DNA of 64,000 nucleotides from Terriglobales bacterium (GTDB lineage: Bacteria > Acidobacteriota > Terriglobia > Terriglobales > Acidobacteriaceae): assembly GCA_963762965.1 (NCBI GenBank), contig CAVXME010000001.1, positions 1,314,328 to 1,378,327 on the forward strand. Reading direction: 5' to 3'. The notes beneath the pieces are model-generated. The model did no database searches and was not told the origin of the DNA. It was given only the letters and a program-made list of their open reading frames with translations. A program made the position numbers and the translations under genes. How positions within the stretch are numbered: the first letter of the stretch is position 1; each line of letters begins with the position of its first letter. Below are positions 49,638 to 55,793 of the stretch, piece after piece.

Positions 49638-49745
49638 TGGCCCATTCAAGCCCGATTTTGGCTTGAGTGGGGCAATTTCGGATCAGCCTCCAACATTCCC
49701 ATTCTAAATTTCGCAAAGAACGCGAAATTTAGAATGGGCCACCCG
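49638..49745 (+). repeat. Composite palindromic repeat A+B (island boundary, copy 1)
   Basis: Hairpin A is cccattcaagcc-cgatttt-ggcttgagtggg (49641-49671). Hairpin B has perfect 17-bp arms cccattctaaatttcgc / gcgaaatttagaatggg with loop aaagaac (49698-49738). The element starts at the first base after the relA stop codon. Confidence 0.9.
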
Positions 49746-49817
49746 TCCGTCTATCTGTATGAGCGAAAGTAACCTAGACGCGAAACCCCATACAATCTAC
49801 TGTTAGCACCAGGAACT

Positions 49818-50096
49818 ATGCTATCCATCTTCGTTGATGTTGTCGCTCGTGGCGCGGTTTTAGTGGGAGTAGTCTTCGTCCTCAGCAAAAGCGTGCCGAG
49901 CATGCCAAACAAGGTGTGCCGCTTTGTTTTTTTGTTCTTTCTGGGCGTGCTACTGAATTTCGTTATTAATTACGTTGATGTTTGGACGCTTGGGTACCAC
50001 AAAATGGGCTTGACTGGGGCATTCATTATCGCTTTGCTCTTTGCCACCTACGGAACTTTTTGGCCACCGCAAACGCACAACTCAAATACGCCATGA
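49818..50096 (+). CDS. Small hypothetical membrane protein (92 aa, ~3 TM)
   Basis: Three hydrophobic stretches. About 48% G+C by my hand count, clearly lower than the flanking core genes. No family was recognised. Confidence 0.45.
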   Translation: MLSIFVDVVARGAVLVGVVFVLSKSVPSMPNKVCRFVFLFFLGVLLNFVINYVDVWTLGYHKMGLTGAFIIALLFATYGTFWPPQTHNSNTP

Positions 50097-50120
50097 CATG
50101 CCTTTATGCGACGGCGGCCG

Positions 50121-50194
50121 GGTGGCCCATTCAAGCCCGATTTTGGCTTGAGTGGGACGGCTCTATCACTGGACAAAGTCTTCCCGCCGCTCGT
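50121..50194 (+). repeat. Repeat A with 3' extension (A+C), copy 2
   Basis: 74 nt, 66/74 identical (ungapped) to 50772-50845. It contains hairpin A plus ctggacaaagtcttcccgccgctcgt. Confidence 0.9.
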
Positions 50195-50254
50195 TCGCGT
50201 TTTCGTGCCGTCCATTCCGACTCGATCTCCACCCGTCCAATGAGCGTTCCTTTC

Positions 50255-50710
50255 CTAGTTCCTGAACGTGGTTGTAAATTGGTTGCGCGTGTAATCATAT
50301 TCAGCGGAACAGCGATACGTTTTGCCCGAAATACTTTTGTAGGAACATTCGATTGTTCTTTTGTTTGTCCCTTCCACGACCGCAGCGGGTTCTAGTTTTT
50401 GAAGATCAATGCTATCTAGGAAATAGGGCTCCTTACTATCTTTCCGTGGTTCGATGCACGATATTTCACCCTTTTTCTTAGCTTGTGGCATTTCCCATTT
50501 CACCTCCAACGCTGGCCCATTTCCCACGTTCCGAAGTTCTGGTGGTTTAGTTATCACACCTTCGTGGATGGCGATTATGGCAGGTTTGAAAGTTGCTTCT
50601 GCGATTACATTGGTGTACCGCACATACTTGATAAGGAACACCAAACCGACGGCGGCCACAGTCAAGGAGCCTAGCTGTATCCATTCAGATGGGGTTAAGC
50701 AAATGTTCAT
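50255..50710 (-). CDS. Hypothetical N-terminally TM-anchored protein (151 aa)
   Basis: ATG at 50710 gives MNICLTPSEWIQLGSLTVAAVGLVFLIKYV (TM), then a beta-rich soluble domain (..LRNVGNGPALEVKW..). The longer ORF to 50905 reads through repeat A and was rejected. No family was recognised. Confidence 0.45.
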   Translation of the reverse strand: MNICLTPSEWIQLGSLTVAAVGLVFLIKYVRYTNVIAEATFKPAIIAIHEGVITKPPELRNVGNGPALEVKWEMPQAKKKGEISCIEPRKDSKEPYFLDSIDLQKLEPAAVVEGTNKRTIECSYKSISGKTYRCSAEYDYTRNQFTTTFRN

Positions 50711-50771
50711 ATTGCTAAGGATGCGGCAGGAAGTAGAATCTGGCAATGGGGAACGCACCACACGGCTTGCG

Positions 50772-50845
50772 GCTGGTCCATTCAAGCCCGATTTTGGCTT
50801 GAGTGGGACAGTTCCACTGCTGGACAAAGTCTTCCCGCCGCTCGT
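50772..50845 (+). repeat. Repeat A with 3' extension (A+C), copy 3
   Basis: Direct repeat of 50121-50194. The two copies bracket the 50255..50710 gene. Confidence 0.9.
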
Positions 50846-50907
50846 CAGCACTCCTGCGGGCTTCCGTATCCTGAAAGCGGAAGGCATCCAGCCGCGATGG
50901 CTCAATC

Positions 50908-53384: not shown

Positions 53385-53406
53385 TTCAGCGGTTCACCAC
53401 AGGCCC

Positions 53407-53525
53407 GGTGGCCCATTCAAGCCCGGTTTTGGCTTGAGCGGCCGTTTTGGGAGCAGCCTTCAGCATCTCCACTTTAAATTTCGCACAGAACGCGAAATTT
53501 AGAATGGGCCAGCCGTCGGTAAGGC
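53407..53525 (+). repeat. Composite palindromic repeat A+B (copy 4)
   Basis: ggtggcccattcaagcccggttttggcttgagcgg ... ccactttaaatttcgcacagaacgcgaaatttagaatgggccagccg. Confidence 0.9.
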
Positions 53526-53546
53526 TATACAAAGTCGAAATCCGTT

Positions 53547-54887
53547 TTAATTGCTGGTTGCGGTCGCCAGCCCGAGCTGCCAAGGAAGTTGAGAGTAGGG
53601 GTCGCCGCTCGCCGCGGGGTTGACCCCCTGGTAGAGGAATTGCAGATTGTTGGGGTCGATCTGGAGGGTCTCGTCGTAGCCGGTGCGGATGATCTCGCCG
53701 TGACTGAAGTCCAGGGTCCAGGGCGTGACGCTGCTGTCAAAGGTCACATCGTTTGAGCCGAGAAAAGGGTCAGCGAAGCTGTTGGCTCCGGTTACCGGAG
53801 TCCAAATGCCACTCAGGCTGTTGGCCAGGAAGGCGCGGAAATAGCGGTGGCCAAAGGGGCCGCCCATGGCCTCGACGATGGCGAAGTATTGCGTAGATCC
53901 CTTGAGGCTGTAAATGCGGGCAGCCTCGAATAAGTCTCCGGCTGTTGTGGCTTTCATGATGATTTGCGGCGCGTTGAAGCCGTTGGGGAAGTTCGCGACG
54001 GTGGTCTGGGTCCGATAAAAGTCGCCGCCATCGTCAGTAAAGAACAGGTAGCAGTTGACGGAGTCGCAAGTGACCCAGAAATCGAGCCAGCCGCTTACGT
54101 TGGAAGGCTGGGTAGCAAAAAAGCTCTGCGGCTGGGTCCAGGTTTGCGGCTGGGTGGGGTCGGCGGCGGTCGAATATTGTGGCGGGCCGGACTGGTAGAT
54201 CAAATACCACTTGTTCTGCGGGGTGAAGTAGAACAGTTCCGGCGCGCAGTGATAGCCGCTGAAGCCGGGCGTGGCGTCCATGTAGTAGGGCTGAGCGGCG
54301 GAGGCCTGGCTCCAGTCGGGGAAGTTCAGGTAGATCATGTTCCAGTTGCCGGAGGTGTCGGCGGTGGTTGCGTAAACCAGCCACTGATTGTTGTAGAAGA
54401 CGGCGGTAGGATCTTTGACCGAAACGATCGGATGGGTGGCGTCGGGGATGGCGGAGATGAGTGGGCCGGTCGAGGTCCACGCGTAGGGATCGGGTGCCTG
54501 GGAAGCGGCATCCACGACCAGGCTGAGGCTCGACGAGGCGACGTTGGTTCCGTCGGTCGCATGCAGCGTAAGCCCATAAGTGCCCACGGCTACGGTCGTT
54601 GCCATCACGGTGATCTGCCCGCTGCTTGCGGCCTCAGGGTTCAAGTACGAGACAGTGGCGCCTGCGGGAAGCCCGAGCATGCTGAAAGTGACGCTTCCGG
54701 TGGTCCCGGTGCGAACCAGGGTGATGGCGGCGCTGGCGCTGGAACCCTCGGCGACGCTCAGCGTGGACGGGGAGAGCTGGAGCGTGATGCCGTTGGGTGC
54801 GACGGGCGTGGTGTCACCTCCACCGCCGCAGCCAATGAATGAAAGCGAAAGACAAAGAGCAGGAAGGAGTGGAACGAGATTCTTCAC
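53547..54887 (-). CDS. Lipoprotein with Ig-like N-terminal domain and glycoside hydrolase family 62 (alpha-L-arabinofuranosidase) domain
   Basis: The lipobox is LSFIGCGG. The C-terminal ~320 aa align by eye to GH62 enzymes (WLVYATT, APELFYF.P.N.WYLIYQ, YLFF.DD.G..YR, LFEA..IY, YFAIVEA, YFR.F.A.SL.G.WTP, FSHGE.IR, IDP.NLQFLYQG). Confidence 0.8.
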   Translation of the reverse strand: MKNLVPLLPALCLSLSFIGCGGGGDTTPVAPNGITLQLSPSTLSVAEGSSASAAITLVRTGTTGSVTFSMLGLPAGATVSYLNPEAASSGQITVMATTVAVGTYGLTLHATDGTNVASSSLSLVVDAASQAPDPYAWTSTGPLISAIPDATHPIVSVKDPTAVFYNNQWLVYATTADTSGNWNMIYLNFPDWSQASAAQPYYMDATPGFSGYHCAPELFYFTPQNKWYLIYQSGPPQYSTAADPTQPQTWTQPQSFFATQPSNVSGWLDFWVTCDSVNCYLFFTDDGGDFYRTQTTVANFPNGFNAPQIIMKATTAGDLFEAARIYSLKGSTQYFAIVEAMGGPFGHRYFRAFLANSLSGIWTPVTGANSFADPFLGSNDVTFDSSVTPWTLDFSHGEIIRTGYDETLQIDPNNLQFLYQGVNPAASGDPYSQLPWQLGLATATSN

Positions 54888-54961
54888 CGGTCGAACGCCT
54901 CAGGAAAAGTCTGGATAAAAACTCGGGGCAAAGCCCTATTCTACAAGATTTCCTCCGCCAC

Positions 54962-55128
54962 TCACGTTGTTAAGCAAAGGGATGTTACCGTTGGTCGGCT
55001 TGCATCGGCTTCCAGGTAATCTGCCAGCTCGTCCGGAAGAATTCGCGATTCGTCCACCATCGTCATGACGTCGTTTCCCCGGCCCACCAAGGAATCGCAT
55101 GCAGATGCACATGCCCGGCCACCCAGGG
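54962..55128 (-). pseudogene. 3' remnant of a HIT-family (histidine triad) gene, frameshifted
   Basis: The minus strand reads PWVAGHVHLHAIPWWAGETTS*. This contains the HxHxHxx triad and resembles the ..PRWxGDTNFM class. The +1 frame then gives MTMVDESRILPDELADYLEA.. to the stop at 54962. No N-terminal half is present. Confidence 0.6.
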
Positions 55129-55659
55129 CTAGCCTTGGTGGGTTTCCGCCGCGAATAGAAACAGACCTGCCATGAGAACCAGCGTTAAGACCTCGATCAG
55201 CAGCGCATACAGAGTCAAGCGTTTTGCTTTGTCAAACTGTGCCAGCAACCGGCTGACCAGTAGTCCCACAATCACGACCGGCGAACAAAGCAGCCGATCC
55301 AGGCAAATCCAGCCCAGAAACATCGTTCCCTGGCCCACGGCCGGGATACTGAGCACTCCCAGGCAAATCGGTGCAGTCAGGCTTAAGCCAAGCAAAACTT
55401 TGGAATACCCGGTGTAGAGAGGTTCGGATTTGCGGATCACCAGCGCCAGAGCAAAAGTCGGCACCAGCAACATGCAGCCAATGATGATCTCCAGCATCCA
55501 GTCGCCGGCTGCGTACATGCCGCCCGCCGCCGCAACGTCTTGGGGATGATTGACGTACAGCAGGTAGCGCGCAAAGACGAGGAGCGCCGCAGCCGCCAGC
55601 ACGACAGCGTAGCCCGCCGCCACCAGACCCAGCTGTGCCCGCAAAGAGATCGATTTCAT
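55129..55659 (-). CDS. Hypothetical multi-pass membrane protein (176 aa)
   Basis: About five hydrophobic segments. No family was recognised. Its TAG stop is immediately followed, in the same frame, by the HIT remnant. Confidence 0.55.
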   Translation of the reverse strand: MKSISLRAQLGLVAAGYAVVLAAAALLVFARYLLYVNHPQDVAAAGGMYAAGDWMLEIIIGCMLLVPTFALALVIRKSEPLYTGYSKVLLGLSLTAPICLGVLSIPAVGQGTMFLGWICLDRLLCSPVVIVGLLVSRLLAQFDKAKRLTLYALLIEVLTLVLMAGLFLFAAETHQG

Positions 55660-55723
55660 CCCGGCATTCTACCCGTCGCGCTTGGAGAATTTCTAATGAA
55701 TGTCTGGTGTCCGTGTTACTGGT

Positions 55724-55793
55724 TTTGGATCAGCCTCCAGCACCTCCCACTCTAGATTTCGCAAAGAACACGAAATTTAGAATGGGCCACCCG
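55724..55793 (+). repeat. Repeat B (copy 4, island boundary)
   Basis: tttggatcagcctccagcacctcccactctagatttcgcaaagaacacgaaatttagaatgggccacccg. Confidence 0.85.

Follow-up and report, generated by a model that had tools for sequence, protein, structure and literature searches.

Within the 64-kb stretch of DNA analysed here (the window), from a Terriglobales genome, the core genes relA/spoT and ridA are separated by an island (49638-55792) that carries a mazEF toxin-antitoxin (TA) pair, an ArsR-family regulator, DUF4256 and DUF1398 genes, a GH62 lipoprotein-like open reading frame (ORF) and several smaller ORFs. Between them lie copies of two hairpins, A and B, which we consider here as candidate repetitive extragenic palindromic (REP) sequences. 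The initial annotation had described a mosaic accessory island cut into modules by these hairpins. Four A and four B copies, all on a single strand, were indeed present in the island. Profile searches with nhmmer, which replaced a regular expression for the hairpin class that was too strict, located A, B and the linker that can join them, and detected no further copy of any of the three in the 64 kb.

Hairpin A (CCCAYTCAAGCC / loop CGRTTTT / GGCTTGAGYGGG) occurs on the plus strand in copies that differ from the consensus by 0, 0, 1 and 3 mismatches in the order of the locus, where dinucleotide shuffles gave an expectation of 0. The right arm of hairpin B, GCGAAATTTAGAATGGGCC, was found on the plus strand at 49722, 51228, 53492 and 55770, against a chance expectation of 0.05. 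The arms measure 12 bp (A) and 17 bp (B), with 7-nt loops; XerCD dif-type (pdif) modules, for comparison, would be bounded by 28-bp XerC/XerD sites of 11-6-11 layout. For B, the length reported initially holds as a perfect 17-bp stem for copy 1 only: the left arm of copy 2 has suffered a 1-nt deletion and one substitution, and copies 3 and 4 contain mismatches. B2, B3, B4 and A4 are thus degraded copies. Folding as single-stranded DNA gave -13.6 kcal/mol for A (z -5.6 versus shuffles) and -18.1 kcal/mol for B (z -7.7).

A one-genome-per-species scan with the exact 18-nt B arm returned at least 118 tiles from at least 95 assemblies, amounting to about 0.9 Mb (B-seeded loci). At least 94 of these assemblies are species-level metagenome-assembled genomes (MAGs) of Terriglobales or other Acidobacteriota, and one match among those listed is a chance match in Kordia. 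The repeats are therefore not special to the island. In nearly all tiles the B hairpin is conserved as CCCCACTCTAAATTTCGC - loop - GCGAAATTTAGAATGGGCCACCCG, with a variable loop; a C-A mismatch of its consensus on the plus strand is a G-T wobble on the other strand, and A has its wobble on the plus strand. At a threshold of ≥30 bits, the profiles recovered 139 B and 71 A copies from the B-seeded loci. The genes found beside B include dnaK and katG, and B even occurs within the gene for RNase P RNA.

The sequences of the two hairpins are related. Reverse-complemented B reads GGCCCATTC[TAAATTTCGC..GCGAAATTTA]GAGTGGGG, and A reads GGCCCAYTC[AAGCC..GGCTT]GAGTGGGG. They have in common a 9-bp stem foot (GGCCCAYTC...GAGTGGGG) below different upper stems, which makes an A-B pair an inverted REP doublet of the type named REPIN or BIME (bacterial interspersed mosaic element). 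The profile strands agree in 35 of 38 neighbouring A/B pairs, meaning that the two REPs are mutually inverted and that the doublet is a heterodimer. In about 45 of 125 copies, B has an A on its own strand 35-147 nt upstream, the modes being about 51 nt and about 140 nt. The shorter spacing yields a composite of ~108 bp, as in the window, and the longer one a composite of ~215 bp; the long composites of 11 genomes align over their full length. The conserved ends of the composites are inverted and extend to GGACGGGTGGCCCAYTC and GAATGGGCCACCCGYCC, beyond which the flanks are unrelated. Inspection by eye of the flanks of 41 composites revealed no target-site duplication. Neighbouring B pairs are on one strand in 23 of 24 cases (p=3e-6) and the strand of B follows the sign of the local GC skew (Fisher p=9e-6). 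This bias fits strand-specific single-strand transposition; selection at the level of the transcript would fit too.

Clustering of the ORFs in the B-seeded loci revealed a recurrent family, present in nine loci and assigned to Pfam Y1_Tnp. Its members from L083, L069, L115 and L084 scored 98-108 bits on the NCBIfam model REP_Tyr_transpos (NF047646), above the cut-off of 80, identifying them as REP-associated tyrosine transposases (RAYTs); on the IS200 model the family scored 25-39 bits, below the cut-off of 55. The best match in the PDB was 4ER8 (E. coli TnpArep), in an alignment that spans PEHIHLL (HUH) and LRYMHRNPV (YxxxNPV). In L064, L069 and L115 the RAYT gene sits exactly between a reverse-complemented B, about 45 nt upstream of the ATG, and a reverse-complemented A, into which the ORF runs so that the hairpin overlaps the stop codon (...VEIESEWTARKRERAA..LCPAVELPHSSQ). 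A likewise overlaps the 3' end of the gene in L085, L099 and L114, and the RAYTs of L083 and L084 have different flanking hairpins of their own with similar GGGTGC.CC feet. Relatives of the window thus encode between their A and B hairpins the kind of transposase to which the initial annotation had pointed. In the orientation of the window, the full unit is A - RAYT gene (minus strand) - B, and its termini are inverted (GGACGGGTGGCCCAYTC / GAATGGGCCACCCGYCC). From no MAG in the sample was a second A/B unit with the gene recovered.

The linker of the long composites consists of the last ~35 codons of the RAYT gene. In the window itself, tblastn with RAYT bore out the earlier remark that no RAYT gene is present, and detected two C-terminal relics instead, both on the minus strand: one at A2 (50134-50238; 80% identity to RAYT residues 145-179, E=1.5e-13) and one at A3 (50785-50844). 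Since the linker is RAYT coding sequence and such relics lie in the window, the elements of the window are internally deleted, non-autonomous derivatives of the RAYT unit. They occupy six sites in 6 kb, namely two short A-B doublets (~108 bp), two A hairpins with a RAYT C-terminal relic and two solo B hairpins.

We considered the possibility that the island is a "decayed REPtron", with a RAYT once resident between relA and ridA. The form with A plus relic is itself dispersed, the linker profile having matched 48 times in other loci at E≤0.01 (40 times at ≥30 bits), and several relatives have a gene for a PD-(D/E)XK endonuclease (Pfam PDDEXK_5), not relA, near RAYT; the idea was not adopted.

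The PDDEXK_5 gene adjoins B in 12 of the at least 118 B-seeded loci (L069 1023-1406, L115 4728-5243, L084 4057-4719, L099 741-1379 and eight further loci). It is found at most ~1.3 kb from the RAYT gene in four species and directly upstream of B + RAYT in L069 and L115. It may mark the RAYT home locus or be a functional partner. An A hairpin also occurs inside the RAYT coding region, just after the HUH motif, in L069 (1520-2131), L115 (5356-5964) and L064 (250-916). It is in frame in L069 and L115, where the ORFs are intact (204 and 203 aa) and the hairpin is translated as ..PFKP.FGLSG..; the L064 gene is apparently frameshifted.

Two further placements of the repeats were observed. The RNase P RNA gene (Rfam RF00010, 294-298 bits) of four species-level MAGs holds a 50-nt B hairpin (genes at L007 4220-4678(-), L009 53-488(-), L076 6771-7226(-) and L078 3539-3978(-)). 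The insert stands in place of the 3-nt loop that closes the second hairpin after P4/P5 (model positions ~95-97), so that a REP-type hairpin serves as a helix extension of an essential ribozyme. Locus L096 (4995-6071, minus strand) contains three tandem full long composites (A, RAYT relic, B) ~435 bp apart, and B forms a 127-nt tandem pair in L012 (4380-4575). Arrays of A/B elements are thus not unique to the window.

The history of the interval was followed in 80 metagenome loci centred on relA (RelA identity 80-88% aa; 0.95 Mb), 68 of which were informative. relA and ridA are 23-411 bp apart in 49 of the 68, inserts of 0.9-4.4 kb are present in 11, and no ridA is found nearby in eight. The 6.2-kb gap of the window is the largest among the loci with ridA and, given the adjacency of the two genes in most relatives, represents a derived insertion. 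Neither A nor RAYT was found in these relA-seeded loci, and B is limited to two copies, both of which belong to L135. As for density, one element site per 8-kb tile was counted in 59 of 103 B-seeded tiles, and six, as in the window, in a single tile, which makes the density in the window exceptional. Neither an even density of the elements nor a conserved content of the interval was found.

Two close relatives share the flanks of the island and differ in its content. In L077 (~89% nt identity), doublet 1, the 92-aa ORF and A2 plus relic have been retained and are followed by an unknown 390-aa ORF, the conserved interior between A3 and B2, B2 and a DUF4331 gene. In L098 (~91% nt identity) a DUF2971 gene directly follows relA; after it come the A3 flank and relic without the A3 hairpin, the same A3-B2 interior, B2 and DUF4331. 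This variation between relatives at 89-91% nt identity sustains the view of a mosaic island between two core genes. Four of six breakpoints coincide with hairpin feet or element ends, as the initial proposal of a recombination hot spot with breakpoints in A or B had implied. They are found at A1 (left edge, 49638), A3 (right foot, 50807/50808) and B2 (right end, 51250) and inside the right arm of B4 (~55781-55784), of which L077 and L098 keep only the last 10 nt, GGGCCACCCG / GGGCCATCCG (GGGCCAYCCG).

An island of similar kind was seen after relA in L135 (12255-16100; RelA 85% identical), with no ridA within 7 kb. Read by eye from ORF and DNA sequences without a family search, it comprises a HigBA-like TA pair, a relic of the 5' part of RAYT, a BrnA-like gene and a restriction-modification pair (methyltransferase and restriction enzyme); the two B copies were detected by nhmmer.

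Modules of the island recur next to B in many other species. The mazF, ArsR and DUF4256 modules were found in 11, 8 and 4 of the at least 118 B-seeded loci and in none of the 80 relA-seeded ones. The DNA identity of the mazEF, ArsR and DUF4256 modules is 76-91%, and that of the mazEF module is 82-90% in at least ten B-seeded loci. The ArsR module of the window bears a deletion scar of ~1 kb near 52181-52186, where the homology blocks lie ~1 kb apart in eight other loci; in L104 the ~1-kb gap after ArsR encodes an AHSA1/SRPBCC-like protein. What had been taken as one module (mazEF plus ArsR-DUF4256-DUF1398) consists of at least two units joined without a repeat between them. In at least six species (L036, L061, L107, L003, L022, L064), a DUF1801 gene has B or an A-B doublet on either side, the two in direct orientation. 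Its downstream B overlaps the 3' end of the gene, and mazEF is often immediately upstream of the first B.

Table 1. Features of the relA-ridA island and its flanks in the window
Feature	Position	Strand	Evidence
relA/spoT, left core flank; stop codon abuts hairpin A1	47433..49637	+	ORF; relatives 80-88% aa identity
Doublet 1, short composite: REP A1 (49641-49671), linker, REP B1 (49698-49738); ends TGGCCCATTC and GAATGGGCCACCCG	49638..49745	+	nhmmer, folding
92-aa hydrophobic ORF, no Pfam family	49818..50096	+	ORF, Pfam search
REP A2 (50126-50156) fused to relic of last 35 RAYT codons (minus strand)	50119..50238	+	nhmmer A and linker matches, tblastn
151-aa ORF, N-terminal hydrophobic segment, low G+C, no Pfam family	50255..50710	-	ORF, Pfam search
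REP A3 (50777-50807) fused to relic of last 20 RAYT codons	50770..50848	+	nhmmer, tblastn E=4.7e-5
Conserved non-coding segment A3-B2, includes 129-nt element	50849..51196	.	inverted-repeat search, comparison with relatives
REP B2, degenerate left arm	51197..51250	+	B-arm search, nhmmer
mazF (51262-51612) and RHH antitoxin (51579-51848)	51262..51848	-	Pfam PemK_toxin, RHH_1
ArsR-family regulator joined by ~1-kb deletion to 3' end of downstream gene	51935..52364	+	HTH_5 E=1.9e-15
DUF4256 (52384-52962) and DUF1398 (52977-53384)	52384..53384	+	Pfam E=1e-90 and 2.8e-23
Doublet 2: REP A4 (53412-53442) and REP B3, both imperfect	53407..53515	+	hairpin searches, nhmmer, folding
GH62 lipoprotein-like ORF	53547..54887	-	Pfam Glyco_hydro_62 E=2e-57
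Frameshifted HIT-like fragment (GHVHLHAIP)	54936..55125	-	three-frame translation; motif only
176-aa multi-pass membrane ORF, no Pfam family	55129..55659	-	ORF, Pfam search
Solo REP B4	55745..55792	+	B-arm search, nhmmer
ridA, right core flank	55860..56237	+	ORF

The gene content first proposed for the island was upheld (Table 1): the mazEF, ArsR, DUF4256, DUF1398 and GH62 modules have matches to the corresponding Pfam families (PemK, RHH_1, HTH_5, the two DUFs and GH62), the 92-aa and 151-aa ORFs each have a hydrophobic segment, and the HIT remnant is an HVHLH fragment with a frameshift, recognised by motif only. For ArsR the family was confirmed and the start corrected from 51937 to 51935. 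The reported low-G+C parts correspond to dips to 0.46-0.51 at 49.6-50.8 kb and 52.2-53.0 kb. Doublet 1 takes the same 102-nt form in L077, L021 and L068. Among the fetched loci, the 92-aa ORF was found in L077 only; other genes take the place of the 151-aa ORF in L077 and L098. The 129-nt element is, as described, bounded by inverted repeats, 20-bp arms at 50951-50970 and 51060-51079, which surround a second strong hairpin. The non-coding segment that contains it (~350 nt) is 88-94% identical in L077 and L098, has a 69-nt partial match (87%) in L050, folds with z -4.6 to -6.0 and holds a GC hairpin, ggccccg..cggggcc. Rfam at gathering thresholds matched only a tRNA-Arg gene in the whole window, and gave no match at E≤1 in 49500-56000, so that no known RNA family accounts for A, B or the 129-nt element.

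Other repeats are dispersed in the window. An interspersed family of ~65 nt (...GGGGTCCTTCGACTCC...CGCTCAGGATGACA) is represented by copies that are up to 95% alike, four in all, at 4075-4145, 5687-5756, 10617-10699 and, reverse-complemented, 57851-57934, the last ~0.5 kb from the tRNA-Arg gene. More short intergenic repeats were noted at 4528-4613, 5818-5859 and 11321-11432; at 12267-12306, 23749-23809 and 62588-62641; and at 56239-56281 and 56824-56866. Among the short intergenic repeats are one rich in CGACCAACGAC, in both orientations, and one of AGCTCTCAGCTGTCAGC-type runs; a heptad-like AATCTAAAATCTGCAATCT run is found on both sides of an FKBP gene.

Taken for their identity alone, A and B are, judging from their sequences and those of their neighbours, very probably two subtypes of one REP class in a REP/RAYT system found across Terriglobales. 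The wider conclusion, that the island is a cluster of repeats derived from REP/RAYT and marks a variable hot spot of insertion, appears likely. A Y1 HUH RAYT encoded elsewhere in the genome would, by analogy with characterised RAYTs and IS200/IS605, recognise the folded single-stranded hairpins and cut and rejoin at their feet, which would account for strand-specific spread without target duplications. The relA-ridA junction would be a recurrent insertion point, at which this lineage may have gathered REP elements together with a TA pair, small stress-type genes, a glycosidase and membrane ORFs. Gain, loss and swapping of modules would most plausibly proceed through recombination or breakage at the REP copies, a step to which we give roughly even chances. 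Should turnover occur in this way, the repeats would mark the borders of modules, rather than be parts of a dedicated cassette machine.

Several observations weigh against this interpretation. The GTAG (GT[AG]G) tetranucleotide is absent from the hairpin foot, which is GGGTGGCCCAYTC, and the repeats thereby fail the classical definition of GTAG-REPs. Their copy number looks low, with at least 1-4 exact B arms per MAG among the matches listed, a count that is a lower bound; classical REPs typically have hundreds of copies. The near-identity of B over at least 94 species exceeds what is expected of purely vertical, drifting REPINs, and may reflect horizontal spread or selection for some other function. 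According to tblastn with RAYT, the window has no RAYT gene, no integrase search of the whole window having been made, and the adjacency of RAYT and REP is known from loci selected for containing B. In the island, no repeat separates the mazEF from the ArsR sub-module, and two of the six breakpoints are off the hairpins, at ~50228-50240 (the end of the A2 relic) and ~50886-50891 (non-repeat DNA). A clean pair of filled and empty sites was not found. The relA-ridA inserts of 15 other lineages, finally, contained no hairpin with a stem of ≥11 bp, indicating that the hot spot does not depend on A/B elements. None of the modules of the window was found in these inserts, which seem, from a look at their ORFs without a family-library search, to consist of ordinary genes.

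Compared with the REP/REPIN-RAYT systems of E. coli and Pseudomonas, the Terriglobales system has most of the defining features, minus the classical GTAG tag. It shares short extragenic palindromes that are found alone, in inverted doublets or clustered, a cognate Y1 HUH gene flanked by inverted repeats (here in relatives only, the window having relics), a score above cut-off on REP_Tyr_transpos with 4ER8 as the best solved relative, the lack of target duplications and a strong strand bias. It differs in that there is no 5' GTAG tag, the doublet is heterodimeric with a common 9-bp foot, many copies keep RAYT coding relics and so resemble RAYT units with an internal deletion, the apparent copy number is low and the sequence is nearly invariant over at least 94 species. 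Atypical RAYT classes without GTAG have been described (PMC6006769, PMC3733652). The closest published description is that of the TIRYT/TIRtron group, tyrosine transposases of cultured Acidobacteria whose flanking long inverted repeats are in some cases self-complementary and make up families of moderate abundance (Di Nocera et al. 2013, PMC3733652). The two have in common the phylum, a tyrosine transposase with long inverted repeats and no GTAG REPs, repeats that are in part self-complementary, moderately abundant and present as dimers or clusters, and flanks that may overlap gene ends. In contrast, the GGGGWSAS motif of that group, compared by description and not by sequence, is not exactly matched here (GGGGCAG, GGGGATG), and the present family comes from uncultured Terriglobales MAGs and includes composites with RAYT relics. 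IS200/IS605 elements and their PATE-type miniature inverted-repeat transposable elements (MITEs) likewise have a Y1 HUH enzyme, subterminal hairpins, no target duplications and non-autonomous copies formed by internal deletion of a gene-bearing unit. Here, however, the hairpins at the two ends have opposite orientations and constitute terminal inverted repeats, the proteins match the RAYT model and not that of IS200 (25-39 bits versus 55), and the gene appears once per genome in the sample, often beside the same PDDEXK_5 gene. Membership of IS200/IS605 was rejected on the IS200 score and because no MAG in the sample yielded more than one gene-bearing A/B unit.

We considered whether REP-bounded segments (A-B or B-B) are themselves moved by RAYT in trans as single-stranded cargo cassettes, in an HUH-transposase analogue of an integron array. 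The four breakpoints at hairpin feet and element ends, and the A3 flank that L098 has kept without the hairpin, would agree with this, as would the recurrence of the mazF, ArsR and DUF4256 modules in B-seeded but not relA-seeded loci and the DUF1801 gene that, in at least six species, has a direct B copy on each side. The side and orientation of mazEF relative to B match those of RAYT in five loci, and in L085 mazEF even lies within a RAYT unit, between inverted A and linker + B. Yet neither A nor B is found on the mazF side of most mazEF copies, the position of the junction between mazE and the B linker varies between species, and mazEF as cargo of the RAYT unit was rejected because only L085 fits. 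Moreover, the B-gene-B units are direct whereas the RAYT unit is inverted, the ArsR...DUF1801 genes resemble one syntenic cluster with repeats inserted between genes, and an identical REP-bounded module at two unrelated sites was not seen. Characterised RAYTs are not known to move cargo, and we regard this explanation as improbable. Much the same low probability attaches to the possibility that A and B act chiefly at the RNA level, as stabilisers of mRNA 3' ends, attenuators or terminators selected at gene ends, so that they lie at module borders only because genes end there. A does follow stop codons closely (0, 26 and 24 nt after relA, the 92-aa ORF and DUF1398), the mismatch in the stem forms a G-T wobble on just one of the strands, the strand of B correlates with strand composition, and the RNase P RNA of four species tolerates B as an extension of a helix. 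Classical REPs, too, have been reported mostly between convergent or co-directional genes (PMC3733652). But neither A nor B is followed by a T-run, the sequence of the stems and not just their pairing is conserved while the loops vary, B2 and B4 are upstream of or between divergent genes, and this explanation leaves unaccounted for the RAYT coding relics and the RAYT gene nested between A and B. A role at the RNA level is compatible with a REP/RAYT origin as a secondary function.

The initial annotation had likened the layout to a cassette array, and an integron-like array without integrase (a cluster of attC sites lacking integron-integrases, or CALIN), in which A-B composites would be attC sites served by a tyrosine recombinase elsewhere, has in common with the island short, often unannotated ORFs and a TA pair, split by structured repeats of ~110 bp in one orientation with no recombinase nearby. 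This comparison did not hold. The composites end in GGCCCAYTC / GAATGGGCC and not in the R-box consensus RYYYAAC / GTTRRRY, and their sequence is highly conserved over at least 94 species; attC sites conserve structure, not sequence. The ORFs lie on both strands, up to five genes stand between repeats, sub-modules are joined without a repeat, and the repeats are dispersed through genomes, singly in the 59 of 103 tiles mentioned above. With a Y1 HUH transposase as the sole transposase or recombinase family among the recurrent neighbours, and no integrase, a CALIN is scarcely credible. It is also highly unlikely that the composites are an ordinary MITE of a DDE-transposase insertion sequence, with 14-17-bp terminal inverted repeats as binding sites. 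The conserved inverted ends and the existence of short and long deletion forms would suit such an element, but no target-site duplication was apparent by eye around the 41 composites, the gene between the ends codes for a Y1 HUH transposase and the ends themselves belong to two separate hairpins.

On present evidence, the island is an ordinary REP cluster in a plastic region. Its unusual features are the heterodimeric doublet, the RAYT coding relics within miniature elements and the near-invariance over at least 94 species. REPs are known to serve as targets for other mobile DNA (PMC1525189). The repeat family will confuse the annotation of Terriglobales MAGs, through spurious read-through ORFs, insertions in RNase P RNA and in-frame copies in RAYT genes, and it is now linked to its enzyme. 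REP doublets that still carry pieces of the transposase gene are direct evidence, from sequence, that a gene-bearing unit gives rise to such repeats through internal deletion. The relA-ridA junction is a variable locus useful for strain typing. If the movement of REP-bounded cargo were true, it would constitute a new route of gene flow in abundant soil bacteria, by which TA pairs and small stress genes would pile up at hot spots of the relA-ridA type.

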